From positions 64,001-128,000 of IMG/VR virus record IMGVR_UViG_3300036985_007703: 64,000 nucleotides of DNA; one strand, written 5' to 3'. Of the stretch, positions 5,995-61,112 are shown one piece after another. A program made the position numbers and the translations under genes. Below the pieces are notes generated by a model. That model had not been told where the DNA came from. It did not search any database and was given only the letters and a program-made list of their open reading frames with translations. This DNA is from a virus. Every line of letters begins with the position of its first letter. Positions within the stretch are counted from its first letter, which is position 1.

Positions 5995-6014
5995 CTGCGC
6001 ATGCGCATGCGCAG
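5995..6014. promoter_or_regulatory. Conserved 20-bp palindrome, copy 1 (CTGCGCATGCGCATGCGCAG)
   Basis: Perfect palindrome between the stop at 6020 and the RBS of the 5979 gene. Confidence 0.75.
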
Positions 6015-6019
6015 CGTCG

Positions 6020-9000
6020 TCACGCGAAGGTGTGCTTGGTCGTCCAGGTGCCCGCGATCCGCTTCTCGACCACGAGGTCATCTCCGGTGCGCCCCGTACG
6101 CCACGACCCATTCGTGGTCGGATCGCCGTAGTAGGTCCACGCATCGCTGGCGACCTCGATGTCCCCGCCCACGTCGAGCCGCGAGCTGGGCGCCGCCACG
6201 TTGATGCCGACCCGCTTGTTCGTATCGTCCCACACCCACTCCGAGGTCTCGGCGTAGGTCCACTTGGTGTTCCCGTTGTCCCAGAAGAGGAGCTGCCCGG
6301 CCGCCGTGCCCGCATCCACCGTGGTGCCGCCCCCCGCCGCGATCCAACTGCACACGCCCGCCGTCGTCGCGCTGAGCACGTAGCCCGTCACGCCCGGCGC
6401 CGCCGCTGGCAGCGTCATCGTCCACGACCCCGCCGCGTCCGCGACCTTGAGCGTCACGGCCCCCGAGGTCGTGCCCAACAGGTCGATCCGACCCGTGACC
6501 CCGCCCGCCTTGCCGATCTGCACGACGCCCGCGTCCGTGATCCGCACGCGCTCGACCGAGGTCGCGGTGTCACTGGGCGTCGTGTTGAACGTCAGATGCC
6601 CGCCGTTCGCTCCAGAGGCCCAGGTCTGCGCCGCAAAGGCCCCGATCCACGCCGTCCCCCTGAATCCCGCCTCGTAACCGCAGAAATACAGGGCACCCAA
6701 GGCATCCCCACTGGAGACCACCGAGGGCGACGCATCGCTCGTCCCGCGCGCCCGCCCTACCAACAAGGTCCCCTGATCGGATGCCGTGTTGCTGACCCCA
6801 AACACCGCATGATAGGCGCTACCCACCCGCGTGAGTTGGAAATCAAACGTCGGCGTGTAGGCGCCCATCCGCAACTTGTTGTCGCTGGTGAGCCGCATCC
6901 GTTCAACAAAGGTCCCTGCCCCACTCATCGTCGAGAAAACGATGCGCCCCGGCACGTAGATCCCTGACAGCGCCGCGTCGACCTCGAACCCGACACCGGA
7001 CGACACGCGGTAGCACGCTGAGGTGTTCGTGTTCCACCCGTAGGCGTAGAAACCACCGATGGTGTCCCCACTGGTCACGACTGTCTTAGAAGCGACCGTT
7101 CCGTTACACCGCAGGAACTCGTAGTAGGCCGCCCCCGCCGACGACTCGTTGGCGATGCTGTTGTAGCCCGCTGCCCCCGATACCACGAGGCGCCGATTCT
7201 GGGCCGCCCCTTCAATGACCGGATCCGTCGCCGTGTTGATCTGCACGTACCCCGCACTCGTGATCCGCATGCGCTCCGATGGCGCATCGTTTATCCCTGC
7301 ATGGAAAGTCAATCTGCCAGGGACATTGTTATTGCTAACAGTTCCATCTATTTCTAAATAAATACCACCGGCGTTCGCATAATCAGTCCCATCATAACCC
7401 CAACCTTGAATACCAAAAACAACCTCAGTGTTTACAACCGCAGTCTTACTGGTCAACGTCCCGTTTGCTCTTAGCATACGCAGGGTTGTTGTTGTTCCAA
7501 CACCATCGACATGAATGCCAGGCAAATACGTCCCGGAAACAGCACCTGCAACATACAACGGAACAGTGTATGACGTTCCACTCAGTGTTGCAGCTCCAGT
7601 CGAAGATCCAAAGCTAGCTATTGGAGTTGCCGTGTCTATGTAATAAAAACTAGACGCGCCACCAAATGCCCCGGCGTTGTTGTATTGAATCTGATGATCC
7701 GAACCTGCTGGTGTCGCCGAGACCGCCGCCCACGAGGTCACGCCGCTGCCGCTCGTCTGGAGGAACCACCCGTTGGTCCCGTTGGTGGTGGGGAACTGGA
7801 ACACGGTCCCCGTGCCCGCCGCCGCCGCCGCCTTGAGCGTGACTGTCCCCGAGGTGGTCCCGTACAAATCGATCTGGCCCGTTGCGCCCCCCGCCACGCC
7901 GATCCGCACGATGCCCGCGCTCGTGATCCGCATGCGCTCGGTCATCGAGGCCGCCCCATCGGCCGTCGTGTAGAAGACCATGTTGCCAGGCATGTCCGAG
8001 GCGCCTGGCGTGGCATCGACGTTCACCCCGATCGCTGCCGCCGGGCGGTATGTACTTCCGTCGTAGCCGCCCCAGTTCAGCGACCCGCAATTGTCCCCCG
8101 ACTGCACGATCTGCTTAGTCCCCACCGTGTTGCGCGCCCGATAGAAGTACATGCTAGCGCCGTTCGACGCGCCAATGGCCTCTACCGCGATGCCCGGCAG
8201 GTTGTTCGTCTGCTCCGTCTGCACCAACAACGGGACCGAGTACGAGGCCCCTCCGATACTGATCGTCTGCGCCGCGCCGATGCTCACGCGGGGCTCGTAC
8301 TGGCTCGCACTCGCGATGCGGAACTTCTCCGCCAAGGTCCCCGCCGCGTCCATCGTGTCGAACCGCAGGTACGAGGACACAAGGTTCGTCCCCACTGCGT
8401 CGGCGATCACCTGGATCTGCGTCGTCTTGCGCCAGTCGGCGTTCTTATAGGCCCAGACCGCCGCCAATTCCGCCAGCACGTCCGCCGCCGCCACGTCCGT
8501 CTTCGAGGCCGACGACCCCCGGCTCTTCATGTACGAGAAGATCCCGTAGGCCGGGTTGCCGAATGACTCCAGCGCGATGCTGCTGTAGGAATCCTTGGTG
8601 ATCGCCAGGTTGTTGCCGGAGGCGGTGTTGGCCACATCCCCGATGCGCACCTGGCCCGCGCTCGTGATCCGCACGCGCTCCACCGGGGACGCGCTCCCCG
8701 AGGGCGTGGTCTCCAAGGTGAGGTACCCCGGCGCACTCGAATCCGAGAACGTGCCATCGGCCACGACGGTCATGCGCCCGCCGGTCACCCACGTGCTTGT
8801 CCCAAATCCCGCACCAACGTGCGCCACCAAGGTGTTACCGCTGACCGCCGCCGTGCGCGAGGCCGCCGACCCGTTCGCGTGGAGCCCTGAGAAATACGAG
8901 TAGTACCCTGTGCCAAAGGTATGCACGCCCACACCGCAAAACGCCTGATCCATCGCGACGACCAGATTGTTTTGGTTGTGGTTCGCCACGCTCGCCATCG

Positions 9001-13450: not shown

Positions 13451-16240
13451 CTATTCGACGACCCACACCGTCCCGCCACTCGTGTTCAGCCAGAACACCC
13501 CGTTGGTGCTCTGGTAGTACAACTGCCCCTGCACCCCCGTCACCGTGCCGTTCGGGTTCACCGCCCCCGTGAGCGTCCCCGGCGCGATGACCAACTGATC
13601 GATCGTCGCCAGCGCGCGCTGCACCGTGGTGTCCGCCGCCGTGAGGTTGCGCGAGAAGGTCCCCGCCGTCACCCCCACGTAGGCCGCCTTGTCCGTGAAC
13701 GCGTAGCCCGGCGCCGTGAGGTTGTCGAAGGTCGCCCCCGCCTGGAGGAGGGGCCGCGCGCTGGGGGCATCGAACGCCACCTGCGCGGGGGCCGCCCCCG
13801 TCACGCCGTCCCACCCGAACTTGTAGCTCCCCAGCGCGCTCAGCTCGCAGTCGCTGAGCCCCTGGCCGTCCCCCGTGGGGCCGCCCAGCTTGCCCGCGTA
13901 GCCCCCCGGCGTCCCGCGCGGGTGCACGTCCCACCGGATCGCCCCGCTGAGGATGGTCCCGCGCACCGCCTGGAGCTGCACGCACCCCCGCACGTCCTGC
14001 GCGAACTCGCACCCCCGCACCGTGAGCCACAGCATGTTCTCGGCCGTCAGCACCGTGGCCTCGCGCTCGCCGCCGAGCACGCCCCCGCTGCCCACGCACC
14101 CATTGGCCACCACCTTGAGGGGCCCCGTCCGGCGCCCCGCCGTGAGGCCCCCGCTGGCCGCCGCCAGGATGCTGCCGTCAAGGCGCACCCCCTCGGCGAC
14201 GAGGGTCCCCACCACGTCCCCCAGCGTCGCCGGGTTCGCGTTCTGGTACTCCAGCCCCGCGAGGAGCCCCGCCTGGCGGGCCGTTCCCGTCGCGAGCACG
14301 CACGCCAGGGGGTACGTCGTCAGGCTCTGCCCGTACCAGTCCTCGGGCCGGTAGTACCACTGCACGAGCCCGCTCAGGAGCCAGCGGTCGCCCACCAGGG
14401 CAATCGTCCGCCGGCGCGGGAGCGCGATGGGCCCCGCATAGGTCCCCGGCGCGAGCACGAACTGCACCGGCGCGTCAAACTCCGCGAACGAGGTCGGCGC
14501 CGCCACCGTCCCCACCGCGTGCGTCAGCGTCTGGTAGGGCTTCTGGACCGTCCCGTTGCCCGTCGTGTCGCTGCCATTGTGCCCGTCCACGTGGACGTTG
14601 CCGAACCCCGTGGGGATCGGCGCCCCGCTGGGGCTCAGCGCGTCGAGCGTCACCAGGGCCTTCTGCACCGTGTCGTCCGCGGCGCTCAGGTTCCCGCTGA
14701 ACCCCGCGCTGTCCACGTGCGTGCCGAGCGCGCGCTCCGTAAAGGCATAGCCCCGGCCTCCCGGCGTGGCCCCCGCGTCAAAGTTGTCGAACTGCGGCAC
14801 GCCCCCGCTGGTCAGCACGCGCCACGAGTAGCTGTCGCACCACACGGCCTCGGGCTCGTCCATCGTCGGGTCGGTCCCCGCGTAGCCTGCTTGGAAGGTG
14901 CCCCCGTTGGCGGCCGTGTGCGCGAGCCCCGGCGCGGGGCCATCGATCCACCCGCGCGCGTAGGCCGCCCCGCTCGGCTGCAGGGCGTGGCTCACCACGC
15001 CGAGCTGGCAGTGGTCGAGGGCCCGCAGGCGCACGTTGCCGAGCAGACGCCACCCGCTGAAGTCGCTCCAGCTCGCCACGAGGTCGACCGCGTTGGGGCT
15101 CCACGCCGCCGCCGCGGGCTCCGCCTCGCCGAAGATGCAGGGATAGGGGCTCGTCCCCAGCGTATCCACGAACCGGCACCGCTCGACCGCCAGGGCCATC
15201 GTCCCGCAGGCATCGCCCGCTGTCACCGACCCCGACGCCTGGTTCGTGATGCGCCCATCCCGCCACTCGATCCCCGCCAGCACGAGGCGCTTCTGGGCGG
15301 GCATCGTCGCGCCAGAGCCCACGTTCTGGTTGAAGGCGCGCAGCTGGCCCACCACCCGCGCCGTCACCGCCATGCCAGCTTGCGCGCCATAAAGCACACC
15401 CGCGTCGCCGTAGATCCCCACCGTGGGCTGGTCCGCCACCAGGTCGAGGCCCAGGCTCGCGTACTGCGTCGGGCTGATCCCCCACTCCAGGTCGCCGCTG
15501 ATCACGTAGGCGGCGCCCCGCAGGATCACCGCCTGGCGCCGCGGCAGCGTCACCGCCCCCGCATAGGTGCCCGGCGCGAGCACGAAGATCAGGGGCACCC
15601 GGAAGGCCTCTGCCGTCGCCGCCACGGGCTGCGCGTTCGCCGCCACCACCAGCGTCTTGTAGGGCTTCGCCGGCGTACCGTCCCCGCTCGTGTCGCTCCC
15701 GTACACCGCATCGACGTAGACCACGCCGTAGCCGCCGGGGATCGTGCCCCCGCCGCCGCCGCCGCTGCCCGCATGGGCGAACAGCACCGCCGCGACGCCC
15801 GGCACCATCTTCGCCGCGTTCCACCACGTGATGCTGTAGTCGCCGTTGACGTAGCCCAGCACGCGGTAGTCGGGGTCGATGGGGACGCCGTTCTGCCACA
15901 GCTCCAGGAGGACGGTGGTCTCCGTCGTGGATCCCGCGGGCACGCGCGCCACCACCATCCAATCCGGCTGGAGGGTCAGGGGCACCGCGCTGCTGATGAT
16001 CATGGTGGTCTGCAGGGTGCGGCTCACGAGCCGCGCATCCCCCGCCAACACCAGGCGAAAGCCGCCGCCATGGGGCGCGATCGTCGCCTCGGGCAGATCC
16101 TGGAAGACCCACGCCGCGGCCTCCAGCTGCTCGAAGATCAACGCGTCGATGGCCACGGCAAAGTCGCTAAACTGGTGCCACCACCCCTGGGCGTTCTCGT
16201 TCGGGTAGGGGACCTTGAATCGCGGGGTCTTCGCCGGCAT
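13451..16240 (-). CDS. Tailspike-like protein with shared N-terminal module (A3) and two tandem beta-helix-like units
   Basis: N-terminus TPRFKVPYP...LELWQNGVP..PDYRVLGYV is shared with the 21956 and 26644 genes. Two copies of (Y/H)VD...GSDT.G.GT..KPY.TL...FVLAPGTYAG, a motif typical of the start of pectin-lyase-like beta-helices. Confidence 0.7.
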   Translation of the reverse strand: MPAKTPRFKVPYPNENAQGWWHQFSDFAVAIDALIFEQLEAAAWVFQDLPEATIAPHGGGFRLVLAGDARLVSRTLQTTMIISSAVPLTLQPDWMVVARVPAGSTTETTVLLELWQNGVPIDPDYRVLGYVNGDYSITWWNAAKMVPGVAAVLFAHAGSGGGGGGTIPGGYGVVYVDAVYGSDTSGDGTPAKPYKTLVVAANAQPVAATAEAFRVPLIFVLAPGTYAGAVTLPRRQAVILRGAAYVISGDLEWGISPTQYASLGLDLVADQPTVGIYGDAGVLYGAQAGMAVTARVVGQLRAFNQNVGSGATMPAQKRLVLAGIEWRDGRITNQASGSVTAGDACGTMALAVERCRFVDTLGTSPYPCIFGEAEPAAAAWSPNAVDLVASWSDFSGWRLLGNVRLRALDHCQLGVVSHALQPSGAAYARGWIDGPAPGLAHTAANGGTFQAGYAGTDPTMDEPEAVWCDSYSWRVLTSGGVPQFDNFDAGATPGGRGYAFTERALGTHVDSAGFSGNLSAADDTVQKALVTLDALSPSGAPIPTGFGNVHVDGHNGSDTTGNGTVQKPYQTLTHAVGTVAAPTSFAEFDAPVQFVLAPGTYAGPIALPRRRTIALVGDRWLLSGLVQWYYRPEDWYGQSLTTYPLACVLATGTARQAGLLAGLEYQNANPATLGDVVGTLVAEGVRLDGSILAAASGGLTAGRRTGPLKVVANGCVGSGGVLGGEREATVLTAENMLWLTVRGCEFAQDVRGCVQLQAVRGTILSGAIRWDVHPRGTPGGYAGKLGGPTGDGQGLSDCELSALGSYKFGWDGVTGAAPAQVAFDAPSARPLLQAGATFDNLTAPGYAFTDKAAYVGVTAGTFSRNLTAADTTVQRALATIDQLVIAPGTLTGAVNPNGTVTGVQGQLYYQSTNGVFWLNTSGGTVWVVE

Positions 16241-16254
16241 CCGCCACCATCTCC

Positions 16255-16273
16255 TTGAGTGTCATCCACTCAA
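16255..16273. promoter_or_regulatory. Inverted repeat overlapping the RBS of the 16240 gene
   Basis: Minus strand reads TTGAGTG-GATGA-CACTCAA, running directly into AAGGAG. Confidence 0.4.
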
Positions 16274-16300
16274 AATAGGCTTCCCCCCCACACTACCCGA

Positions 16301-16580: not shown

Positions 16581-16600
16581 CTGCGTACGCGCATGCGCAG
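16581..16600. promoter_or_regulatory. Conserved 20-bp palindrome, copy 2 (CTGCGTACGCGCATGCGCAG)
   Basis: Between the stop at 16603 and the RBS of the 16567 gene. Confidence 0.7.
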
Positions 16601-16602: not shown

Positions 16603-17583
16603 TCACGGGATGGCCGGCTGGCTGCCATCCCATCCGATCAGCAGGTCGCCCATGACGATCCAGTCCCAGGGGTCGCCCGTCCCGCGCGCGTAGGCCCCGT
16701 CCGGCAGCACGCTCGGCGCCAGGTACATGTCCCAGGGCTCGCCCGGCTTGCCCCGCGACGCCGTGTTCTCCGAGATGAACCCCGTGGGCAGGAAGTTCCA
16801 GCACCCGTCCCCGTCCGGCCGGTTCAGCAGCGTCTCCGTGACGAGCCCGCCCTTCGCGGTCTCCCCGCTGAGCCGCAGCGTCGTCGTCGAGGCCGCCAGC
16901 GTCGTCTTGGGGCCCGCCGCCGCCGTCTGCACGAGGTTCGCGATCGTCGGCGCCTTGATGAATCCCACGTAGGGGTTGGTCCAGTACGTCTCGGGGTTCC
17001 GCGCCTTCTCGAGCCACAACATCGCCTGGACTACCCCGCCGTTGCAGAGGAAGGCCCGCGTACTCTGTCCATCCGACGCCATGACCCGCAGACATCCCCC
17101 ACTGGCCGTCGTCGGCAACGTCGTCGGAAGAATCGCTCCTGCGAGCAGGGACACGGCATCGGTCGCTGTCGGTGCTGCCGTCGTACTGCCGCCCGTGAAT
17201 CCGGCGGCGGGCGAGATCGAGATGTTCATGGACTGGCCCTGCGCTGACGCGATCGAGCAGTCGAGGAGGAGCTGCATGTAGCCCGGCGCCACCCCGACGT
17301 TCGCCTGCTGAAGCACGATCCACGACCGTGCGCCACTCGTCGCGAACGTGATCTTCGAGTAGTCCGTCCAGCGGTCCACCGTGTCACTGACGCTCGCCGT
17401 GACGCCATCGCTGGACCCCCGCACCGCCCACGCATTCGGCCCCGCCTTGACCCCATTGTTCCCGTACTGGAGAGACTCCTTGAGGTCCCACCAAATCCAC
17501 TTGTTCAGCGTCAGAATCACGTAACTTGCATCCGCGTGGTAGAGATTCTTAGCCACCCACGACTTGACCCGCGTCAACGCCAT
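16603..17583 (-). CDS. Paralog family protein P7 (putative virion/tail protein)
   Basis: 326 aa with family motifs K.W, W.V.GS.DG, D.W, SWIVL, GFTGG....PTA.D and C-terminal G...D....P.....G..........GD......DG. Closest to P5. Confidence 0.75.
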   Translation of the reverse strand: MALTRVKSWVAKNLYHADASYVILTLNKWIWWDLKESLQYGNNGVKAGPNAWAVRGSSDGVTASVSDTVDRWTDYSKITFATSGARSWIVLQQANVGVAPGYMQLLLDCSIASAQGQSMNISISPAAGFTGGSTTAAPTATDAVSLLAGAILPTTLPTTASGGCLRVMASDGQSTRAFLCNGGVVQAMLWLEKARNPETYWTNPYVGFIKAPTIANLVQTAAAGPKTTLAASTTTLRLSGETAKGGLVTETLLNRPDGDGCWNFLPTGFISENTASRGKPGEPWDMYLAPSVLPDGAYARGTGDPWDWIVMGDLLIGWDGSQPAIP

Positions 17584-26644: not shown

Positions 26645-28771
26645 TTACTTGATCTCGCTGAGCGCGAGCGTCCCGCGCTTGATGATGTAGCTCGCCGGGG
26701 TCATCACGTTGCCGTCCACGTCCACGAAGCCCTCGTGGCCCGGCGCCGCCAGCGTCACGTTCGCGTAATCCATGCCCTTCGTCGCCGCCTTGATGATGTC
26801 ATGCACGGTCTGCTTGTAGAGGGGCTGGTTGAAGTCGCGCCCCCGCAAGACCTCCAGCAGCGCCTGCTCGATGTCCGCGAGCACCTCGGCCGCCACGTAG
26901 CTCGGCAGCACCTTGACCGCCACCGCCACGTCCACCGGCACGAGCATCGCGCTGCCGTCCGTCACCTGCACGAGCTGCGTGACCTCCTTGATCCCGTCGA
27001 TGTAGGCCTGCATCCCGTAGATGAGGCCCGCCGCCGGCGCCACGTAGTCCCCGTCCCCGTTCACGCTCACGATGGGGACCTGCACGTAGTTCGCCTTGCA
27101 GTCCGCATCGAACAGCGTCGAGAGGTGCGCTTGGAGGTCGACGAGCACCGCGAGGATGTCCGCCTGGAGCTGCGCCGCGCTCCCCGGCAGGGGCGCGATG
27201 GCCTCGGCCGCGTTGCCCACCGCCGTCACGGCCGTGCCCGCGAGGCCCAGCAGCGTGGTCAGGTACTGCGCCATCGTGACCTGGCCCTCGCCCGTCGGCG
27301 TGAGCAGCTGCTGCATGGCGAACCCATAACCGTCGAGCTTGGTCGCCGCCGCCCCGCCGTTGCTGAGGCTCGTGCTGATCGTGCCCCCCTGCGCCGCCAG
27401 CGTCCGCGAGTAGTTCGCCAGCGTCGTGTCGCTGGGGTAGGTGGCCTTGATGTAGTTGTCGAGGTCCGTCAGCGTCGTGCCCATCGCCTTATAGGCCGCG
27501 TCCCCCGTCGTCATCTCCACCTGGAGCTGCTGCGCCACCGCCCGCACGTTGGCCGCCTGGACCTCCAGGGCGCTCTTCAAGAACCCCATCTCGGCGAGAA
27601 GCCCCTGCATCTCCGCAAGGATGCCCTGCGCCGTGGCGATGTCCGCCGCCGCCGCCGCCTCGGCCGGCCCCACGAGCAGCAGGTAGTTCGCCAGGTAGCC
27701 ATCGATCTGCTCGCACTCCCCGACCAGGATCGCGTCCTCCTCGGAGGCCCGCACGTTGATCGCGTAGCCCTTCGCCACGCGCCCGTAGAGGGGGTCGCTG
27801 AACCCGTTGACCTGCGCCTGGTAGTCGGTCTGCGTGATGGCCGCCCCGCGCGCCGCAAAGGCGTAGGGGGCCAGCTTGCGGGCCTCATCCGGGGTCTCGG
27901 GGTCCGCCCCGCCGCTCGCCCCCAGCGGGTTCGTGCAGGCGATCTTGATGGCCGCCCCGCCGACGCTCAGCACGTCGGTCGCGCTCGCCACGGTGCCCGC
28001 CGCGGCCCGCCCCGTGGCCCCGTGGATCAGCGTGTACTGGATCTTCACATCCGACCCGGCCTCGGGGATGTTCCCCGCCACGCCATCCCCGCACGCCACG
28101 GCCGGGGGGTCGTAGAGGTAGTCCACCTCGTACTGGTTCGTCTGCGCAAAATCGAGGAAGTCGTTCTCGGCCCACTCCGCGCCGTCGATCCACACGCGCA
28201 CGCTCCCCTGCGCGACCCAGATCCCGTTCGCGGGGTCCCCGCCCTGCATGCGGAAGCGCTGGTTCTGCGCCCCGTCCCCCGTGTAGCCCACGGTCCGCGT
28301 GGTGCCCTCGCGGCACGCCACGGTGATCGTCGCGGTGCCCGGCGCGAGGAAGGTCGGCGCCACGGTCTCGAAGACCAGCCCCGAGGGCCCCGCGAAGCGG
28401 AACCCCGCCTGGAGCTGCGCGGGCGCCGGGATCGCCGGGGTGAACGTCAGGTCGAGGTCGACCGTCGCCGCTGCCGCGGGCCGCATCTTGTAGCCGACCT
28501 GCTTGACCAGCTTGGCCACCGCGGAGTGCGTGCGCGCCGTGTCGAGGTAGCAGTCGCTCGCCACGCGGTCCATGTACCAGCAGAGCTGCCCCACCGCGTT
28601 CGCCACGAGGTCGATGAGCATGATGCCCACGCTCGTCGAGGCGTAGTCGTTGTAGACGCTCACGTATTCGACCTTGAGCCGCCGCAGCAGGCTGTCGAAG
28701 ATCGAGGCGTAGTCCTTCGCCGCAAACTTTACGGCATTCAGAGGCTTGCGGTCCGCTACGGGGACTCCCAT
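26645..28771 (-). CDS. Baseplate wedge protein (T4 gp6 / P2 gpJ-like) with a helical insertion
   Basis: KDY.SI...L, YNDY..TSVG.MLIDL.A, YLDTART..AV.KL..QVGY, GDG..G.IP, N...ASGGADPET, A+T..DY motifs; adjacent to the gp25-like gene. Confidence 0.9.
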   Translation of the reverse strand: MGVPVADRKPLNAVKFAAKDYASIFDSLLRRLKVEYVSVYNDYASTSVGIMLIDLVANAVGQLCWYMDRVASDCYLDTARTHSAVAKLVKQVGYKMRPAAAATVDLDLTFTPAIPAPAQLQAGFRFAGPSGLVFETVAPTFLAPGTATITVACREGTTRTVGYTGDGAQNQRFRMQGGDPANGIWVAQGSVRVWIDGAEWAENDFLDFAQTNQYEVDYLYDPPAVACGDGVAGNIPEAGSDVKIQYTLIHGATGRAAAGTVASATDVLSVGGAAIKIACTNPLGASGGADPETPDEARKLAPYAFAARGAAITQTDYQAQVNGFSDPLYGRVAKGYAINVRASEEDAILVGECEQIDGYLANYLLLVGPAEAAAAADIATAQGILAEMQGLLAEMGFLKSALEVQAANVRAVAQQLQVEMTTGDAAYKAMGTTLTDLDNYIKATYPSDTTLANYSRTLAAQGGTISTSLSNGGAAATKLDGYGFAMQQLLTPTGEGQVTMAQYLTTLLGLAGTAVTAVGNAAEAIAPLPGSAAQLQADILAVLVDLQAHLSTLFDADCKANYVQVPIVSVNGDGDYVAPAAGLIYGMQAYIDGIKEVTQLVQVTDGSAMLVPVDVAVAVKVLPSYVAAEVLADIEQALLEVLRGRDFNQPLYKQTVHDIIKAATKGMDYANVTLAAPGHEGFVDVDGNVMTPASYIIKRGTLALSEIK

Positions 28772-29371: not shown

Positions 29372-29391
29372 TCGCGCATGCGCATACGCAG
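29372..29391. promoter_or_regulatory. Conserved 20-bp palindrome, copy 3
   Basis: TCGCGCATGCGCATACGCAG between the spike stop and the next RBS. Confidence 0.7.
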
Positions 29392-29396: not shown

Positions 29397-30365
29397 TCAC
29401 CCGATCGATACCACCTCGGACAGCTCCTTGTAGAGCATCGGCGGGGGGGTCGGCCCCGGCGTGCTGGGGGCCCCCGGCGCCGCGCACATGTGCTGGTGGA
29501 TCATCGACCACGCCAGGAACTTCATGCCCCGCACCGCGGGCTCGAACACCGGCCCAGCCCCGAGGCAGACCTTGCCCGCGTTCAGCCACGCCTTGCCCCC
29601 CGCCATCACCGTGGCATCCCCCGGCGCGCTCAGCGTCGCGGCCTTCCCGTCGAGCGCCAGCATGGCCCCGCTCTGGTTCGCCAGCGTGATCTTGTCCTTG
29701 CCCAGCGTGAGCCACGCGAGCACCTGGTTGGTGTCGGGGTCCACGTTCATGATCGTGACGCTCGCGTTCTTCGCGTCGATCGCGAGGTGCGTGCCGCTCT
29801 CCGCCATGAGGAGGATCCCGCCGTCCTTGTCCAGCGTGATCACGCTCCCGCTCTCCACCCCGCTGCCGTCGCCCTTGGCCAGCGTGATGTGCAGGTCCTC
29901 GGGCTTGTCGCCGAACCGCAGGTAGTGTCCCGCCGGCGTCTTGAACCCCTTGCGGAAGGCCTCCCCGCTCGCCGTCAGGGCCGTCCCCGCGGCGTCCTTG
30001 GGCAGCCACCCCCCGAGGTACACGGGCACCGTCTGGTCCCCGTGCTCGAACATCACCCACACGGCGTCCCCCACCTCGGGCGGCACGAAGAGGCCGTGCA
30101 TCTGCCCCGCCGCCCCCTTCGCGAGCCCCGGCCAGCAGGGGAGCGCCCAGTAGCCCTTCGGCACCTCGGCCTCCGTCGCCATGCCCAACGCCGGCACCTG
30201 GATGCGGCAGCGCCCCCGCTTCTCCTCGTCCTTGTTGTCGACGACGAGCCCCGTATAGAGCCCGTAGTAGCGGTTCGCGTGGTTCTCCAGGCCGTCCGCG
30301 TGGATCGCGTCCATCACGTAGCCCGCGGGGTCGTTCTTGCGGCGGCTGTCGGAGAGGTCGAACAT
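29397..30365 (-). CDS. Central baseplate spike (gp5/gpV/VgrG-type OB-fold plus beta-helix)
   Basis: YYG.Y.G.VVDN.D....GR..IQVP, WA.P, PPEVGD.VWVMFE.GD...PV.LG; C-terminal HQH, like the metal-binding HxH of P2 gpV-type spikes. Confidence 0.9.
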   Translation of the reverse strand: MFDLSDSRRKNDPAGYVMDAIHADGLENHANRYYGLYTGLVVDNKDEEKRGRCRIQVPALGMATEAEVPKGYWALPCWPGLAKGAAGQMHGLFVPPEVGDAVWVMFEHGDQTVPVYLGGWLPKDAAGTALTASGEAFRKGFKTPAGHYLRFGDKPEDLHITLAKGDGSGVESGSVITLDKDGGILLMAESGTHLAIDAKNASVTIMNVDPDTNQVLAWLTLGKDKITLANQSGAMLALDGKAATLSAPGDATVMAGGKAWLNAGKVCLGAGPVFEPAVRGMKFLAWSMIHQHMCAAPGAPSTPGPTPPPMLYKELSEVVSIG

Positions 30366-30368
30366 CGT

Positions 30369-31781
30369 TCAGGCCTCCTTCATGGGCTGCGCCTGGGTCT
30401 GCGTCTGCGCCAGGTTGCTCGTCTGCGTGGAGCCCCACTTCACCAGCTCCAGCACCGTCTTCCAATCCCCCGGCGCGTAGTTGTGCGTGAGCTTGTTCAC
30501 CACGTAGGTCGAGTTGATCATCGAGCTGCACCCCGCCACCGCCACCACCGCGGCCGGCTGGATCTTGGGCAGGCCCAGGGTCGTCACCGTGAGCTGGATC
30601 GCCATGCGGTCCGCCGCCCCCACGCCCTGCGCCGCCAGCTCCGAGGCCGCCTTGGCCCCCGCCACGCCGCCCGGCGCCGCCACCGCCCGGTTCGCCGGCA
30701 CGCCCTTCTTGCCACCGGGATCCACCTTGACGTCCGCCTGCAGGTCCCCCCGCTTGTCGTCCTGCGCCTCGGCCGCCACGGCGCTCCCCTTGGGGTCGCC
30801 CGGCCGCTCCCCGTCCTTCGGCCAGTTCCACACCGGCTCCAGGACGAGCCCCGTGTCCTTCTCCAGCATGATCGCCCGCGTCCCCGCCGTGGCCCCCGGC
30901 ACGGGCACCTGGTCCCACTTGCGGCCCTCCGCCCACATCGCCGCCCCCCCGCTGAACGACACGTCCAGGATCGGGTACTGCGCCGGCGTCGCCGTGGGGT
31001 CGAAGAGCCCCCGCAGCACCAGGCTGTACGTCGTGCTCTGCGTCGCGGAGTACCCCTTGGGGTAGTAGAAGATCGCCGGCTTGAAGCTCGACACCGAGGC
31101 AATCGCGTAGCCGAAGTGAAAGTCCAGGTTCGCCAGGCTCAGGATGCGCCGCACCGTGCGCATCAGCGCCATGCTGCCCATCACCGCGTAGGCCGCCCCC
31201 TCCAGGTCCTTGCCCCCCACGCTGATCTGCTTGGACAGCGCATCCAGCTTCGCCGCGCCATCCCCCAGCGGGATCGCCGTGTACCCCATGGCCAGCGCCA
31301 GCCCCTCGAAGATCGCCTTGGCCGAGGTCAGCGCGAGGTCGTCCCCCGGCTTCACGTACTCCATCTGCCGCGCGTCCCGGAAGCTCGCCGTGAGCGACCC
31401 GCTCAGCTTGTCGCTGCTCAGCGCGAGCCCATCCCCGCCCTTGCCCAGGAACCCCGCGTAGTCCTCCGTGACCTCCGTCGCGCTGCCCGCGAGGTAGCCG
31501 ATGCGCGCGCGCACGAGGTTGCCGAAGTCGAACGCGCCCTGCTCCAGCAGGTAGATGCCCTCCTGGTAGGGGGCCTCAATGCCGATCGTGAGCCCGTCGT
31601 GCGTCCCCCCCTTGCTCATGGTCACGCTCACCGAGGTCACGAAGGGGCCGCCCATCACGGCGTCGCTCGACGGGGCGTTCCCCGTGGGCCAGCGCCCCAC
31701 GTCGAAGACCCAGGCCTTGCCCGCCTTGTTGCGGATCTCCACCTGCGCGAAGGGGGCAAAGAAGTCCGCGGTCCCCGCCAT
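30369..31781 (-). CDS. Baseplate hub (gp27 / P2 gpD-like)
   Basis: Lies between the LysM-like gene and the spike; C-terminal T.G.P.I.P...V.V.G......TY.V..LTH......W.T.LEL. Confidence 0.75.
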   Translation of the reverse strand: MAGTADFFAPFAQVEIRNKAGKAWVFDVGRWPTGNAPSSDAVMGGPFVTSVSVTMSKGGTHDGLTIGIEAPYQEGIYLLEQGAFDFGNLVRARIGYLAGSATEVTEDYAGFLGKGGDGLALSSDKLSGSLTASFRDARQMEYVKPGDDLALTSAKAIFEGLALAMGYTAIPLGDGAAKLDALSKQISVGGKDLEGAAYAVMGSMALMRTVRRILSLANLDFHFGYAIASVSSFKPAIFYYPKGYSATQSTTYSLVLRGLFDPTATPAQYPILDVSFSGGAAMWAEGRKWDQVPVPGATAGTRAIMLEKDTGLVLEPVWNWPKDGERPGDPKGSAVAAEAQDDKRGDLQADVKVDPGGKKGVPANRAVAAPGGVAGAKAASELAAQGVGAADRMAIQLTVTTLGLPKIQPAAVVAVAGCSSMINSTYVVNKLTHNYAPGDWKTVLELVKWGSTQTSNLAQTQTQAQPMKEA

Positions 31782-35499: not shown

Positions 35500-35519
35500 T
35501 TGCGCATGCGCATGCGCGG
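35500..35519. promoter_or_regulatory. Conserved 20-bp palindrome, copy 4
   Basis: TTGCGCATGCGCATGCGCGG between the stop at 35522 and the tape measure RBS. Confidence 0.7.
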
Positions 35520-35719: not shown

Positions 35720-36552
35720 AAACCCGGCTGTGACACGTCCAGGCTCGCCGTCCACTCGTGCTCGCACGCCGCGCACGCGAACTCCACCTTGTCGTCGATC
35801 CCGCCCTCGCGCTCGTCGAACGCGACCCGCAGGCGCTCGCGGTCCCGCAGGGGCAGCGCCTTGAGCGCCCGGAGGGTCTCCGCCCACCCGCGGTCGCGGT
35901 CCAGGGGCCGCCCATCCACGTGCGTCACGCGGGCCGCCAGCGACAGCGTGGCGAGGTCGTCATCGCTGCCCTTGCGCTTACGCGCCGCCCACTCCTCGTC
36001 CTCCACCCCCATCACGCGCCACACCGCGGTGCGCCCGCTGGGGAGGGGCTCCTCGAAGATCCGCACCGCGCGATCCGGCATCGCCGTGATCGCCAGCTCG
36101 CTGAGGTCCACCGCAAACGGGGTCTCCTTCCCGCACTTCGGGCAGACCACCCGCATGTCGTAAAGGTCGCCCAGGGAAGCCCGCCGCACCGCGATCAGCA
36201 GCACCGAGCGGTCCATCGAGGTCAAGACGTGCGCCACCCCCCGCAGGGCCCCGCGCCCCGTGAGGGTCCCCAGCTGCACCAGGCAGTTGCCGATCATGCG
36301 GTTCAACCGCGCGATCACCGGCCCCTTGCCCGCCAGAATGTCCTCCTCCGTGCCCGACATCTCCTGCACGATATACGTGAAGTGGATCTGGCCCTCCGCG
36401 TCGATGTGCCCGCACGGCAGCTCGCCGCCGATCGTCGCCGCGCGCGGGTCGTGCAGGTTCACGCCCGCCTTCCCCTGCTCGACCACGGGCGCCGGCGCCG
36501 GCCCCGCTCCTTGCTCCGCTGGCTGCTCTTCCACGTGCTGCTCCGTCATCAT
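35689..36552 (-). CDS. Tail assembly chaperone with CxxC pairs
   Basis: E+SG.EEDIL, DR..LL.A+RR.SLG, CPKC, CAAC and a terminal FFFP; directly upstream of the tape measure. Confidence 0.85.
   Translation of the reverse strand: MMTEQHVEEQPAEQGAGPAPAPVVEQGKAGVNLHDPRAATIGGELPCGHIDAEGQIHFTYIVQEMSGTEEDILAGKGPVIARLNRMIGNCLVQLGTLTGRGALRGVAHVLTSMDRSVLLIAVRRASLGDLYDMRVVCPKCGKETPFAVDLSELAITAMPDRAVRIFEEPLPSGRTAVWRVMGVEDEEWAARKRKGSDDDLATLSLAARVTHVDGRPLDRDRGWAETLRALKALPLRDRERLRVAFDEREGGIDDKVEFACAACEHEWTASLDVSQPGFFFPSAASGR
35716..35725 (-). other. Programmed -1 ribosomal frameshift site G GGT TTT TTC
   Basis: Overlapping in-frame X XXY YYZ heptamers G-GGT-TTT and T-TTT-TTC near the chaperone stop. Confidence 0.85.
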
Positions 36553-36755
36553 GCTCCGCCTTCCGCTGGTTGCTTCTCCTCAGTCAACATGGTCGGGGCC
36601 CCCACCGCCCGCAGCCGCGCCTCGACCGCGCGTTCCTCCAGGCAGTACGCGTACATGCGCTCCCGCACCACATCGGAGACCGTGCGCCCGGACCGCGCCG
36701 CGTGCCGCGTCAGCTCCTCGTAGATGTCCTGCTTGATCTCGACGTTTAACCGCAT
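36549..36755 (-). CDS. Ribbon-helix-helix (CopG/Arc-like) DNA-binding protein
   Basis: MRLNVEIKQDIYEELTRHAARSGRTVSDVVRE fits the RHH pattern; ATG 36755 follows AAGGAG. Confidence 0.8.
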   Translation of the reverse strand: MRLNVEIKQDIYEELTRHAARSGRTVSDVVRERMYAYCLEERAVEARLRAVGAPTMLTEEKQPAEGGA

Positions 36756-36774
36756 GGTGGGGCTCCTTGTGTCG

Positions 36775-36803
36775 ATCTTACTCAAGGCCCCCGCCGCCCG
36801 CAA
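36775..36803 (-). promoter_or_regulatory. Putative sigma70-type promoter for the RHH gene
   Basis: TTGCGG-17 nt-TAAGAT about 20 nt upstream of the ATG. Confidence 0.5.
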
Positions 36804-36813
36804 GTTTGTGGGA

Positions 36814-37794
36814 TCAGGCCTGCGCCACCGGCTGCTGTTGGGCGCGCCCCGCCGCCGCCTCGCGGTCGATTGCCGCCCCGCGCTTGGTCAGCTCCGCATC
36901 CGCGGCCTTCGCGCGCTGCTTCGCCGCCGCCTTGGCCTTCAGGCGCTCCTTCGCCGCCGCCGCATCCCGCTTGGTGGGCGCCGCGGCCTTCTTCTTGGCG
37001 CCCTGGCTCGCCAGCGCCTTGGCCGCGTGCTTGCTCGGGCCCGTGCCCCCACCAGCCCGGTGCTTGGCGATCAGCTTGAGGGCCGCCGCCGCCGCCTTCA
37101 CGCGCTTCGCATCGCCCCGCCCCATGCCCTGCTGCATCATGGAGAGGGCCCGCACCAGCTCCTTGTCGCCGCCCTTGCGTGCCGCCTTCAGCGCCTTGCC
37201 CACCTTCGCGGTGGTCTCCTGCGCCTTCGCCGTCTGGTAGGCCGCGTGGACCGTGCGCGCGCTCGCCGCCACGCCCCGCCCCAACGTCTTGAGCCCGCGC
37301 CCCGTGGCCCGCAGGGCCTTGCCGAAGCGCGACTTCATGAGCTGCTTGCCCTTCTTCTTGAGGGCCTTCTTGACCACCTTGAGCTTGTGCTTGCCCCGCC
37401 GCTTGAGGGCCGCCGCCTTGCCGCCCAGCACCGCGATCTTGTGCCGCATCTCGGGCGACATCGCGTCCTTGGCCGCGCCCCAGCCCTTCTTGGCCAGCCG
37501 CGCCGTGCCCTGGGCCGCCGCCTTGCCCACCGCGGCCCCCGCCCGGCCCAGCCCCTTGGCCGCCGCCTGGCCGAGGATGCCCGCCATGCGCGTCCCCACG
37601 CCCTCGTCAAGTTGCTGGCCCGCCGGCGTCAGGGCCTCCACGCGCACGAGCCCCTTGCGCATGCGCATGCGCGCCCCGCGCCCCGGCAGCGCCCCCGCCG
37701 CCACGAGCCCCGGCCGGATCGTCCCCGGCCGCTTGCGGGGCATCCGGCTCCCCAGCGGCACGGGGACCCCCGCCACGTTTGCGCTCGTGATCAC
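36814..37794 (-). CDS. Highly basic Lys/Ala/Arg-rich (histone H1-like composition) protein, putative internal head protein
   Basis: 326 aa, extreme K/A/R content, LDE|G site before the basic region. Confidence 0.65.
   Translation of the reverse strand: MITSANVAGVPVPLGSRMPRKRPGTIRPGLVAAGALPGRGARMRMRKGLVRVEALTPAGQQLDEGVGTRMAGILGQAAAKGLGRAGAAVGKAAAQGTARLAKKGWGAAKDAMSPEMRHKIAVLGGKAAALKRRGKHKLKVVKKALKKKGKQLMKSRFGKALRATGRGLKTLGRGVAASARTVHAAYQTAKAQETTAKVGKALKAARKGGDKELVRALSMMQQGMGRGDAKRVKAAAAALKLIAKHRAGGGTGPSKHAAKALASQGAKKKAAAPTKRDAAAAKERLKAKAAAKQRAKAADAELTKRGAAIDREAAAGRAQQQPVAQA
37655..37674. promoter_or_regulatory. Conserved 20-bp palindrome, copy 5 (intragenic)
   Basis: TTGCGCATGCGCATGCGCGC, read as ARMRMRK in the ORF. 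Confidence 0.55.
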
Positions 37795-43257: not shown

Positions 43258-43277
43258 TTGCGCATGCGCATACGCAG
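43258..43277. promoter_or_regulatory. Conserved 20-bp palindrome, copy 6
   Basis: TTGCGCATGCGCATACGCAG; on the minus strand its last AA forms part of the AAGGAG RBS. Confidence 0.72.
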
Positions 43278-48112: not shown

Positions 48113-48556
48113 CTACCGCTTGCGCCGCCGCCCCCCCTCGGGGCTCTCCGCAGCGTCCCCCGCCTCCGCTGGCTGCTCCTGGTCCACCGTATCACCGGAC
48201 GGCGGGGCGATCACCTTTTCCCCCGCCGCCACGGCCCGCTCCAGGGCCGTGGGCTCGACCACGCCCACACTCACGGGGGGAAGATCGGGGTTGCGCGTGA
48301 CGCCGCGCTCCGAGAAGTAACCCGCGAACTTCGTGGGGGTCAGCGCCGTGCCGCCCCCCTCCACCTGCATGGGGTGCACGCCGGGCTTCGCGTCCGCGGG
48401 CCGCCCGCAAGGGCGCAGGACTCCGCGCTTCACCATGGACTCCGTGCTGGGCACGAGCTGGTGGACCTCCACCTTGCCGTACGGCGGCACCGCCACCGTG
48501 TTGCCCATGCCCGTTGCGACCGACTGCACCCGACTGCCCGTATAGAGGTACCACAT
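48113..48556 (-). CDS. Hypothetical protein upstream of the sheath
   Basis: Start reassigned to ATG 48556 (TAATG overlap; MWYLYTG). Confidence 0.6.
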   Translation of the reverse strand: MWYLYTGSRVQSVATGMGNTVAVPPYGKVEVHQLVPSTESMVKRGVLRPCGRPADAKPGVHPMQVEGGGTALTPTKFAGYFSERGVTRNPDLPPVSVGVVEPTALERAVAAGEKVIAPPSGDTVDQEQPAEAGDAAESPEGGRRRKR

Positions 48557-49272
48557 TAGAACTTCGCTCCTTGCCCGCCCACCGCAGGCCGGTAGTTGTA
48601 CATCGCCAAATCCACGACCTGCAGCGCCGGCCAATTCTCCGACTCGCAGAGGTCGATCTCCGCCCGCACCGTCCACGACACCGTGAAGCCCACCGAGCGG
48701 TTCGCGATGTCCGTGAGGTCGGACACGTCCGAGATGTTCAGGTCGCCCGTGTCGTAATGCCGCACGTCCCCCTTGCTGTCGGTGACGGCCAGGGGGAACC
48801 ACGGCGGCTTGCACGCCCGCAGGATCTGCATGAGCATCCGCGTGGAGTCCGTGCGCAGGCGCGCGAAGCCCTGCACGTCATAGGCGAAATTGAAGGGGTG
48901 CGCGTTCCAGCGCTCCGCATACTGGTCATAGCCGCGCTCGCCCGTGGGGAGGACCACGGGGCGCGCCCCCGGCGCCGCGATGCGCTCGGTGCCGTACCAC
49001 GGCGCCCGGTCGTAGGCCACGTCCAGGCTGTTCCGCTTGATCACGTACGCCGGCAGGATGTGGTGCTGGTAGGCGTCGTCCGGCGCGCCCCAGAAGATGG
49101 GCACGCGCCCCCCGAGGTGGGCGAGGTCCGTGGGGAGGTCGCGCACGGTCACCGCATAGGCCTGGCGCTGCGTGCCGTCCACGGCGTAGCTCACCAGCTC
49201 GCCGCCGAAGGCCCGCATCACGCCCTCATCAAAGGCGCGGATGCCCACGGTGCTAAACGCGCTCTCGACCAC
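48556..49272 (-). CDS. Tail terminator / sheath stabiliser (T4 gp15-like)
   Basis: VPI.WG.P, LPA..I.R.....D..R, PFN..Y.V...AR......ML.QIL; synteny upstream of the sheath. Confidence 0.7.
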   Translation of the reverse strand: MVESAFSTVGIRAFDEGVMRAFGGELVSYAVDGTQRQAYAVTVRDLPTDLAHLGGRVPIFWGAPDDAYQHHILPAYVIKRNSLDVAYDRAPWYGTERIAAPGARPVVLPTGERGYDQYAERWNAHPFNFAYDVQGFARLRTDSTRMLMQILRACKPPWFPLAVTDSKGDVRHYDTGDLNISDVSDLTDIANRSVGFTVSWTVRAEIDLCESENWPALQVVDLAMYNYRPAVGGQGAKF

Positions 49273-49291: not shown

Positions 49292-49311
49292 CTGCGCATG
49301 CGCATGCGCGG
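49292..49311. promoter_or_regulatory. Conserved 20-bp palindrome, copy 7
   Basis: CTGCGCATGCGCATGCGCGG between the stop at 49313 and the RBS of the 49272 gene. Confidence 0.72.
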
Positions 49312-50462: not shown

Positions 50463-51155
50463 CTAGGCGCCCTGGGCCTGCCCCTGGGGCTTGCGCTTGG
50501 TGGGCACCTGGGCCTGCGCCTTCAGCGCCCGCCGCGTCTCGTGCCCCTTCTTTGCCGCCGCGCTGCGCTTGGCCGCCACCTGCTGCACCGCCAAGGCCTT
50601 GGCCGCCTTCTTCTGCGTGCGCTGCGCGCTGATCAGCTTCGCCGCCATCGTGACGCGGCCCTCGCGCTGCTTCTCGGCCGGCTTCAACCGCTCCATCCCC
50701 ATACGCCGCGAGGCGCCCTTGAGGTGCTGGCGGATGCCCTCCATCATGCTCTGGCGCTTGGTGCGCTTGGGCCGGAAGCCGTAGTGGCGCTTCACCTGGT
50801 TCTTCCAGAAGCGCATGGCCTGCTCGTAGTTCGGCTTGCCCTTGGCCACGATCCGCCCCTCGGTCGCCATGCGCGCCACCGCGCTCCACCAGAAGGCCGC
50901 GGAGTCTGGGAACGGGATCTGCGCGGGGTCGATCAGGTACCACGGCGGCTGCAGGTAGCGCCCGTACTTGGCCTTGGCCTGCTCCATCGTCAGCTTCTCG
51001 GGCCGCGGGTTGCGCGTCGGCATGCGGGGCTGGATCGCGCGCTCCTCCAGCAGGGCCGCAAGGCGCCCCGCCAGCCCCTCGTTGCGTACGCGCATACGCA
51101 GGGGAGAGCCCGTGATCGCCCGCAGGGCCCCCGCGAGTTGCCCCGCCGTCCTCAC
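50463..51155 (-). CDS. Highly basic protein, putative internal/DNA-binding virion protein
   Basis: GTG 51155 overlaps the upstream TGA; K/R/A-rich C-terminus; LLEE and MME|G sites. Confidence 0.6.
   Translation of the reverse strand: MRTAGQLAGALRAITGSPLRMRVRNEGLAGRLAALLEERAIQPRMPTRNPRPEKLTMEQAKAKYGRYLQPPWYLIDPAQIPFPDSAAFWWSAVARMATEGRIVAKGKPNYEQAMRFWKNQVKRHYGFRPKRTKRQSMMEGIRQHLKGASRRMGMERLKPAEKQREGRVTMAAKLISAQRTQKKAAKALAVQQVAAKRSAAAKKGHETRRALKAQAQVPTKRKPQGQAQGA
51082..51101. promoter_or_regulatory. Conserved 20-bp palindrome, copy 8 (intragenic, near the 5' end)
   Basis: TTGCGTACGCGCATACGCAG, with a symmetric change in both arms. Confidence 0.6.
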
Positions 51156-56270: not shown

Positions 56271-56276
56271 AGGCCC

Positions 56277-60619: not shown

Positions 60620-60628
60620 GCCGGCCCC

Positions 60629-61084
60629 CTATGCGTCGATCAGGTCTTTGGCCAACCCGGTCAGGCGCTGCACCACGTCGGGGCGGTCCCGCAGCACCGC
60701 CGGCATCACGTGGACCGAGTACTGCTCGCTCTCCGGCACCAGCGACAGCTGCACCTCGCCCGGCAGCAGCCAGATCAGGGCCGTGCTGTAAAGGGTCTCG
60801 GCCTGCACCGCCGCGGGGAAGCGGAAGACCAATTCGCCGTCCGCCCACTTGCCCTGCAAGTTCGGCATCGGCTTGGCCTGCACGAGCTTGTTGTCGCCGT
60901 GCCAGAACTGGTCGCTCTGGGGGGCATCTGCCACCTCCTGCAGGAGGCGCCCCGGCCCCCCGCGCTCCGCACGCGCCTCGGGGGCCCCGCTCCCGCCCAG
61001 CGCCGCCCGGACGTCCGGGGGCAGCGCCGCGTAGGTGGCCTCCACGTCGCCCATCCAATCATGCACCGGCAATACCATGGTCAC
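60629..61084 (-). CDS. Hypothetical protein
   Basis: RBS GAGG after palindrome copy 9; fills the gap between the neck genes. Confidence 0.55.
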   Translation of the reverse strand: MTMVLPVHDWMGDVEATYAALPPDVRAALGGSGAPEARAERGGPGRLLQEVADAPQSDQFWHGDNKLVQAKPMPNLQGKWADGELVFRFPAAVQAETLYSTALIWLLPGEVQLSLVPESEQYSVHVMPAVLRDRPDVVQRLTGLAKDLIDA

Positions 61085-61092
61085 ACCTCGCT

Positions 61093-61112
61093 CTGCGCAT
61101 GCGCATGCGCAG
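61093..61112. promoter_or_regulatory. Conserved 20-bp palindrome, copy 9 (CTGCGCATGCGCATGCGCAG)
   Basis: Identical to copy 1, including the flanking CGTCGTCA (28 bp identical). Confidence 0.75.

Follow-up and report, generated by a model that had tools for sequence, protein, structure and literature searches.

A short palindrome is repeated through a 64-kb stretch of phage DNA (hereafter the window), bases 64001-128000 of the 168,532-bp IMG/VR record IMGVR_UViG_3300036985_007703 (G000), and most of its copies stand between the stop codon of one gene and the Shine-Dalgarno (SD) sequence of the next. Comparison with related phages revealed that the positions of these sites are conserved across distant lineages while the sequence of the motif has been replaced. 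The palindrome is a real, selected and dedicated phage cis-element. Since the sites of one distant lineage (type A, below) carry signatures of duplex recognition and the sites are positionally homologous among lineages, we favor a symmetric DNA-binding protein as their reader. The palindromes would then be putative duplex DNA sites for a two-fold symmetric, lineage-encoded phage protein that co-evolves with them, a reading that in our judgment is about evenly poised between right and wrong.

G000 has a GC content of 69.6%, and nearly all of its genes lie on the minus strand, i.e., the genome is almost one-stranded. Since PHROG and Pfam searches matched a tail sheath, a baseplate wedge, a T4-type portal, a prohead protease and a T4 baseplate protein, the phage is, by these matches, a large T4-like myovirus. 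No cultured phage close to G000 was found; the best sheath matches, to Bacillus and Streptomyces phages, were <35% identical. Comparisons were made with three close relatives (IMG/VR contigs G001, G002 and G004, 85-95% DNA identity to G000) and with distant relatives among the loci recovered by a tail sheath protein search (29 loci, 43-97% identity, 34-68% GC). Genes were called by home-made procedures, based on third-codon-position GC (GC3) for G000 and on length for the relatives, and the assignment of single copies in relatives as intergenic or coding is approximate. Below, "window" coordinates refer to the 64-kb stretch and "genome" coordinates to the full G000 record.

Palindrome copies in the window

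A degenerate consensus of the palindrome matched exactly nine sites in the window, scored as 18-bp cores, and none in dinucleotide-preserving shuffles. These are the nine copies that an earlier note on this DNA had reported as 20-bp units, which begin one base before the 18-bp cores, and a search for (TGCGCA)x3 with at most 3 mismatches returned the identical nine sites vs. 0.25 expected. As the note had described, seven of the nine are intergenic: on the minus strand the stop of a long open reading frame (ORF) precedes them by 2-9 nt, the next start follows after 7-21 nt, and a GGAG-type SD stands directly 3' of the motif. The remaining two (37656 and 51083) fall inside the 5' parts of called ORFs, again as described. 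Two further details of the note were borne out, namely that copies 1 and 9 have 28 identical bp in common (the upstream TGA stop included) and that copy 8 carries a symmetric change in both arms (T5/A14). The nine copies, in window coordinates, are:

Copy 1, 5996..6013, TGCGCATGCGCATGCGCA, between a 2007-aa tail-fibre-like gene, whose stop lies 6 nt upstream on the minus strand, and a 1365-aa gene (start 5979).
Copy 2, 16582..16599, sense strand TGCGCATGCGCGTACGCA, 3 nt after a TGA stop, with the SD directly 3'.
Copy 3, 29373..29390, 6 nt after the stop of a baseplate-hub-like gene; AGGAGG comes next, and an ATG lies 12 nt past the motif.
Copy 4, 35501..35518, separated by 3 nt from the preceding TAG stop and by 21 nt from the start of the following 1108-aa gene (32153-35479).
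Copy 5, 37656..37673, inside the called ORF 36814-37794, with an SD-like AAGGGG and an in-frame GTG 8 nt downstream; this GTG may be the real gene start.
Copy 6, 43259..43276, 9 nt after a TGA stop, with AGGAG directly 3'.
Copy 7, 49293..49310, separated by 2 nt from the preceding TAG stop and by 20 nt from the start of gene 48556-49272; the tail sheath gene lies ~1.27 kb downstream of this copy.
Copy 8, 51083..51100, sense strand TGCGTATGCGCGTACGCA, in the 5' part of the called ORF 50463-51155.
Copy 9, 61094..61111, TGCGCATGCGCATGCGCA, 6 nt after a TGA stop, upstream of gene 60629-61078.

Genome-wide distribution and close relatives

The palindrome had been regarded as a feature of the late operon, a restriction that did not survive a search of the full record: 28 copies are scattered across the whole of G000, early and replication regions included. 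The motif, termed type C here, has a 16-bp core composed of the half-sites GCGYAYGC and GCRTRCGC. Positions 1 and 18, on either side of the core, are constrained in class only (Y and R), and in two copies a transversion occurs there. The earlier statement that all substitutions are transitions holds among the nine window copies, and of the 18-bp core first proposed it is the inner 16 bp that stand, positions 1 and 18 lying outside the constrained palindrome and showing no covariation. Sites are spaced more evenly along G000 than at random (coefficient of variation [CV] 0.59 vs. 0.95, P = 0.003), and even spacing was found in five of six genomes tested, G000 among them (CV 0.51-0.64 vs. 0.95, P = 0.001-0.04).

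The three close relatives contain 23, 8, and 4 type C copies, while a reversed-pattern control gave 0. Their orthologous junctions keep the element, with differences that are transitions at positions 1, 5, 7, 12, 14, and 18, and presence/absence polymorphism at the sites is almost nil. Copy 2, for instance, is unchanged in G001, and the sites orthologous to copy 3 in G001, G002, and G004 are 0-4 transitions apart. Copy 5 is kept, with transitions, in G001, G002, G004, and locus L032; the site of copy 6 shows four different variants across these same four sequences, and copy 8 is kept with changes in G001, G004, and L032. Searches of a literature library for the exact motifs gave no phage paper carrying them.

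Different motifs at the same junctions of distant relatives

Among the loci of the sheath search, the type C motif was not found outside the close clade. Other dispersed palindromes occur there instead, in relatives whose sheath proteins are 43-59% identical and whose GC content is 34-62%. Type A reads R-CGAACT-NN-AGTTCG-Y, and CGAAC-N4-GTTCG was found in 30, 22, 18, 20, and 6 copies in five records (G005-G009, 42-195 kb, two of them complete), which are the type A genomes compared here, with 0 in the reversed control. Type B, GCAAG-YR-CTTGC, has 8-17 copies in six further records (control 0-3). Both have the stop-palindrome-SD-start layout of type C. Counted from the center, a single half-site position distinguishes type B from type C (CGCAAGC vs. 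CGYAYGC), and a central YR step is common to all three types, except in a CC/GG sublineage. In a sheath tree the motif types follow three deep lineages, with 99/98 support for the type A clade; type B is represented by one long-branch row (L058), the placement of which is flagged as uncertain.

Conservation of junctions was assessed by clustering the proteins encoded just downstream of the sites. The junction before the 1108-aa gene (copy 4) carries a lineage-specific palindrome in six of six genomes (G000 and G005-G009), and five genomes have a site ahead of gene 60629-61078 (copy 9), namely G000 and, with type A motifs, G005-G008. The baseplate-cluster junction of copy 3 is also occupied in G005, G006, and G007. 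In all five type A genomes a site precedes a gene of 228-248 aa; the G000 gene did not cluster with this group, but the distance of the site from the sheath gene suggests that the junction corresponds to that of copy 7, and 15 related loci have a type A palindrome 1.2-1.35 kb upstream of the sheath gene, i.e., at the copy 7 position. Likewise, G005-G008 have a site at the corresponding position within the orthologue of the gene that contains the copy at genome 132092, although the encoded peptide is different. Conservation at equivalent junctions of relatives, which the earlier note had proposed as a check, was thus found, the sites being kept and the motif being lineage-specific. The clade provides a natural experiment in which the same junctions are occupied in lineages of 34% to 70% GC and the motif has been replaced twice. 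Replacement of the motif at kept junctions argues strongly for a trans-acting, co-evolving reader, and the three types offer three matched sets of sites and proteomes in which to seek it.

This pattern also bears on the proposal that the palindrome is a selfish miniature mobile element, or a repeat resembling the repetitive extragenic palindromic (REP) elements, that spread without serving the phage. Such an origin would fit near-identical copies in otherwise minimal intergenic gaps, several of which (type C) have a common upstream stop and flank, TGACGRCGC, and a Polyangiaceae metagenome-assembled genome (MAG), G010, holds 12 copies of the 16-mer vs. 1 in the control. However, the positions of the sites are kept between lineages whose motifs differ, close relatives are almost free of presence/absence polymorphism, and the MAG copies lie in hexamer-periodic (TGCSCR)n tracts, a different kind of element, so that we find a selfish origin scarcely credible. 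The tracts in this 9.3-Mb MAG are intergenic, one of them directly after a tRNA gene, and matches to the 18-mer in bacteria are mostly (GCGCAT)n coding repeats. The MAG copies may be a hint to the host lineage or a coincidence.

Duplex DNA site or RNA hairpin

Symmetry tests on 112 non-redundant type A sites made use of their asymmetric center and variable flanks. The arms are invariant, with 3 one-mismatch variants at start-proximal sites in the five genomes. A purine occupies -1 in 111 of 112 sites and a pyrimidine +1 in all of them, yet the flank pairs (AT 16, GC 45, AC 30, GT 20) include 61 complementary combinations vs. 58.7 expected (Fisher p = 0.68). In the aligned sites, flanks that are class-constrained but uncorrelated are the pattern of two independently read duplex half-sites, not of a base pair. 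The center is unoriented relative to the sense strand (24 vs. 19, p = 0.54), and in the G005 sublineage it has changed from CA/TG to CC/GG in both orientations, which is one change on the duplex but two different loops for an RNA. In addition, some copies have no translation start downstream: they stand where genes converge, between two tRNA genes, or immediately before a -35 box.

The existence of a protein reader, its origin in the phage, and the effect of its binding are inferred rather than observed. A dimeric, sequence-specific phage protein would bind ~25-30 duplex sites per genome at fixed gene junctions, spread evenly over a whole chromosome whose genes almost all point one way. The network would most likely act on transcription passing through the junctions, and each site might serve as a roadblock, an insulator, or a loading site for a processive factor. 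A narrower proposal, which we hold to be rather unlikely, is that this clade, having no recognizable T4-type late promoters, uses the evenly spaced sites at fixed junctions for a co-evolving protein that loads or blocks a processive transcription factor, the site having been re-specified at least 2 times without moving. A reader and its effect on transcription, if identified, would explain the temporal organization of a large one-stranded phage genome that lacks a recognizable late-promoter motif, and the reader would also supply orthogonal operator-protein pairs.

Several observations, chiefly on type C, weigh against a protein that reads two half-sites of duplex DNA. When distinct states were counted per orthologous group and compared by Fisher test, pair 5-14 (CG 21, TA 10, TG 5, CA 1; p = 8e-5) and pair 7-12 (TA 15, CG 13, TG 6, CA 4; p = 0.008) were found to covary, while pair 1-18 showed no association (p = 0.65). 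Several differences between orthologues are symmetric double transitions, e.g., at genome 139916 and at window 5996, where copy 1 has TGCGCA...TGCGCA and its G001 orthologue TGCGTA...TACGCA (TGCGTATGCGCATACGCA). Symmetric double transitions are not predicted by a homodimer reading two independent half-sites and suggest intrastrand pairing instead. The covariation suggests selection on pairing (of RNA or DNA), hairpin-templated correction, or short-patch conversion between copies; of these, hairpin-templated correction would be plausible for the type C palindrome alone, which is long and GC-rich. Asymmetric intermediates on the sense strand lean in the same direction (G.U-type 11 vs. C.A-type 5, p = 0.21), copy 2 being the sole G000 site with C.A at pair 5-14, and the predicted type C RNA hairpin is stable (-12.7 kcal/mol). 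Finally, most copies directly precede the SD, which in type A stands at an almost constant distance from the palindrome, an arrangement that may also suit an RNA-level role at translation starts.

Covariation, a stable type C stem, the G.U lean, and a site directly 5' of the SD are what would be expected of an intercistronic RNA hairpin that is recognized, for binding or cleavage, by a sequence-specific RNA-binding protein or nuclease, or that serves as a structural insulator, and that sets mRNA ends, stability, or translation of the downstream cistron. A core KhpA-like KH protein in G000, G001, G005, and G006 would be in keeping with such a hairpin. We consider this explanation possible but doubtful, since the predicted type A stem has merely 5 bp (-4.4 kcal/mol) and is invariant over deep divergence with no compensatory change. 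Furthermore, the class-constrained -1/+1 positions of type A are unpaired (A..C makes up 27% of sites, as under independence), both complementary loop versions appear on the sense strand and changed in concert in the G005 lineage, and copies at convergent junctions and upstream of a -35 box have no cistron start to serve. The G.U excess is not significant, and neither Rfam families nor tRNAs were matched in the window. If the element were nonetheless an RNA device, it would be a rare genome-wide use by a phage of sequence-specific stem recognition.

An intrinsic terminator was rejected, as no T-run (≥4 T within 12 nt, sense strand) follows any of the type C copies (0/28). A stability or terminator hairpin (the earlier note had offered an mRNA processing or stability hairpin as one of three options) is weakened by this absence, by the low stability of the type A hairpin, and by type A arms that show no covariation and type A flanks that do not pair. 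Overall, the clade-wide comparison of sequences suggests that the balance tips from RNA towards DNA without settling the question, and a hairpin contribution in type C may exist, given its inner-pair covariation.

Non-B DNA, recombination, and promoters

The note had also offered a Z-DNA- or cruciform-prone site. In a broader form, the palindromes would adopt a non-B structure (cruciform, single-strand hairpin, or Z-DNA) for replication, recombination, or supercoiling, for example as targets of a RuvC-like resolvase or a topoisomerase. In type C, palindromy is kept by symmetric changes and strict purine/pyrimidine alternation runs over 18 bp; the sites are evenly spaced, and a core RuvC-like protein is present. 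However, types A and B do not alternate, and since they are positionally homologous to type C, Z-DNA as a conserved property is ruled out; that option is left unsupported because alternation is confined to the type C lineage. The predicted DNA hairpin of type C amounts to -9.4 kcal/mol, while the 5-bp arms of types A and B are too short for a stable cruciform (-3.5 kcal/mol for the type A DNA hairpin). GC-rich centers such as that of type C disfavor cruciform extrusion. Homology breakpoints are not enriched at the sites either: 2 of 95 high-scoring segment pair (HSP) ends, in comparisons of G000 with G001, G002, and G004, fall at sites vs. 5.8 expected, which also rules out a recombination linker. 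Taken together, a role as non-B DNA seems very improbable.

A promoter was likewise rejected, since there are no conserved upstream columns and the SD starts 0-8 nt past the motif. Within 60 nt upstream and 45 nt downstream of the 28 G000 copies, no columns other than the SD are conserved. The T4 late-promoter box TATAAATA was not found on the sense strand, and Sigma70_r2 had no match in G000, G001, G005, or G006. In a type B relative, a 166-aa ORF containing Sigma70_r2 (G015:71929-72111) lies ~330 nt from a type B palindrome. In sum, the observation made in the earlier note is confirmed and its interpretation is partly supported: the element is a dedicated cis-element, and of the options listed an operator or roadblock array fits best.

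LexA-like boxes and host regulators

Type A fits CGAAC-N4-GTTCG exactly, which we take to be the Cheo-box consensus, the LexA operator of B. subtilis and actinobacteria. The palindromes might accordingly be boxes for a host regulator, in type A the LexA of Gram-positive-type hosts, with a role in SOS coupling or LexA titration. The type A motif stays the same in phages whose GC ranges over 34-58%, Bacillus and Streptomyces are the hosts of the nearest cultured sheath relatives, and G006, which holds 22 perfect Cheo-box-like palindromes, encodes a LexA-like protein and gave no Peptidase_S24 match in its genome:

G006:139271-139708 (L220:1249-1686), minus strand, LexA DNA-binding-domain protein, 146 aa, 60.7 bits.

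However, this gene is confined to G006 among the genomes searched, a word-based protein search having returned the query only. Type A is also constrained beyond the LexA consensus at positions 6 (T) and 9 (A), as well as at its flanks (R at -1, Y at +1), and its sites are not at promoters. Types B and C do not fit the Cheo box, and to our knowledge the type C motif of the window matches no LexA box. Moreover, four Myxococcota MAGs in which the 18-mer occurs carry GAAC-N4-GTTC-like or GTTCAG-containing boxes upstream of lexA, not type C. We therefore regard a host regulator as improbable.

Candidate reader proteins

To return to a phage-encoded reader, Pfam scans of the core proteins and of 126 small non-structural G000 ORFs yielded few nucleic-acid-binding domains. 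The candidates were:

Window 36549..36755, minus strand, RHH protein, 68 aa (Pfam RHH_1, E 3.5e-5), ~1 kb upstream of the copy 4 junction.
Genome 4608-5135, minus strand, HTH_17/MerR-like protein, 175 aa, in the replication module outside the window.
Genome 14190-14447, KhpA-like KH-domain RNA-binding protein, with counterparts at G005:83674-83877, G005:125164-125361, and G006:110621-110824.

The RHH protein had been suggested as the binder. It is real and clade-wide, with homologues in every lineage examined (G001, G002, G004-G009, and L058). However, its N-terminal beta-strand, MRLNV(E/D)(I/L)K (MRLNVEIK), is nearly invariant across types A, B, and C, and only that of G005 differs (MRVNFDII). 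Since this DNA-contact strand does not change with the three motifs, RHH is disfavored as the determinant of specificity. The HTH_17 protein is a core protein present in all three motif types, and one position of its recognition helix differs among them, being N in type A (three genomes), H in type B (three genomes), and Q in type C. From these alignments it may be a better candidate reader than RHH. Nevertheless, it is only a lead, because motif type is confounded with phylogeny (three clades), which tells against using the correlation in support of a co-evolving reader. The KhpA-like protein was found only in G000, G001, G005, and G006 among the genomes searched.

A ParB-type reader was rejected: ParB_N had no match in G000, and in G005 and G006 the domain (G005:123006-123230, G006:73585-73806) sits in an ORF whose G000 orthologue is an N6_N4_Mtase DNA methylase. 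Just upstream of the ParB_N-bearing gene, both genomes have a type A palindrome, a T-run, and a TTGACA box. Three relatives of 34-35% GC (L054, L055, and L057) each contain one copy of TGTTTCACGTGAAACA, the canonical parS palindrome, in the tail-gene region.

Comparison with known repeats

Many scattered protein-binding sites, often in gaps within operons, are known from the stoperators of Cluster A mycobacteriophages (bound by L5 gp71), the C1 operators of P1, and the KorB OB sites of RK2. These act away from promoters by roadblock, silencing, or long-range repression, through known repressors and in temperate or plasmid elements. Stoperators, which are 13-bp sites, and C1 operators both lack symmetry, and the former follow the direction of transcription, whereas the sites described here are two-fold symmetric with a center of random orientation. 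At the RNA level, the C(UUCG)G hairpins of T4, REP elements, and the RNase III sites of T7 are intercistronic inverted repeats that act via stable RNA structure and tolerate compensatory change. The palindromes resemble them as short inverted repeats between cistrons, and REP elements are known near stop codons. They differ in having invariant arms, a marginal 5-bp stem in most of the clade, no U-tract, and a loop that is not strand-specific.

Closest among described elements is a 17-bp dyad repeat, TGTTCGG-N3-CCGAACA, found in Cluster O mycobacteriophages; its function is unknown, and a dimeric DNA-binding protein was predicted for it (Cresawn et al., 2015; PMC4351075). Both have ~30 copies in each genome, inverted arms that do not vary, and an asymmetric center that varies and is unoriented (seen here in type A, the type C center being symmetric); most copies of either are intergenic, roughly one third lie in coding sequence, and neither is tied to promoters or rearrangements. 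However, sequence and arm/spacer geometry differ, as do the phages (siphoviruses of Mycobacterium vs. metagenomic large T4-like myoviruses). Here, furthermore, the sites keep their positions across deep divergence although the motif changes among three types, and the inner-pair covariation of type C has not been reported for Cluster O.

Cluster K mycobacteriophages carry start-associated sequences (SAS), which are asymmetric, oriented 13-mers including the ribosome-binding site (RBS), and extended SAS (ESAS), which have imperfect 17-bp arms with a 4-13 bp spacer and a subcluster-specific inverted-repeat consensus, also of unknown function (Pope et al., 2011; PMC3203893). Like ESAS, the palindromes are inverted repeats just upstream of the RBS in a subset of genes, conserved by gene family and with a lineage-specific consensus. 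Unlike ESAS and SAS, each is one compact, near-perfect palindrome accompanied by an ordinary SD and no SAS-like element, and some copies have no start codon. By its sequence and geometry, the element belongs to none of the Cluster O, Cluster K, stoperator, or C1 systems. Dispersed symmetric repeats have been known in a few phage groups (Cluster O, Cluster K ESAS) for >10 years without a function.

Other features of the genome

Besides the palindrome, the only enriched intergenic words were the SD and the early-promoter motif TTGACAAAC, a separate motif class common to the clade. TTGACAAAC corresponds to the extended -35 box of sigma-70-like early promoters and is an enriched intergenic 8-mer in G005 and G006 as well. 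The early promoters in G000 are:

Genome 2039-2200, TTGACAAAC early promoter.
Genome 4511-4607, TTGACAAAC early promoter.
Genome 16915-17004, TTGACAAAC early promoter.
Genome 27776-27840, TTGACAAAC early promoter.
Genome 30283-30394, TTGACAAAC early promoter.
Genome 158585-158686, TTGACAAAC early promoter.

In the gaps at genome 16915-17004 and 18577-18757, a palindrome stands between a -35-like box and the start codon, and at genome 41816 one abuts a TTGATA -35 box. A canonical terminator, separate from the palindrome, lies just upstream of the copy at genome 7259.

A second intergenic element is the inverted repeat CTTGAGT-N7-9-ACTCAAG, which runs directly into the SD (…ACTCAAGGAG). It was seen at at least 3 junctions, all without the palindrome:

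Window 16241-16300, CTTGAGT-N7-9-ACTCAAG element.
Window 36756-36813, CTTGAGT-N7-9-ACTCAAG element.
Genome 60794-60896, CTTGAGT-N7-9-ACTCAAG element.

The ends of the G000 record (genome 1-341 and 168192-168532) overlap by 341 nt at 97.7% identity; therefore, the record is probably near complete, although the overlap may alternatively reflect circular permutation, and the completeness estimate is 83%. Two inteins were found in G000, one with a LAGLIDADG domain in a DnaB-like helicase (genome 9589-12174) and one with an HNH domain in a 984-aa protein (genome 134314-137268). The latter protein is encoded directly upstream of the portal gene and is probably the large terminase.

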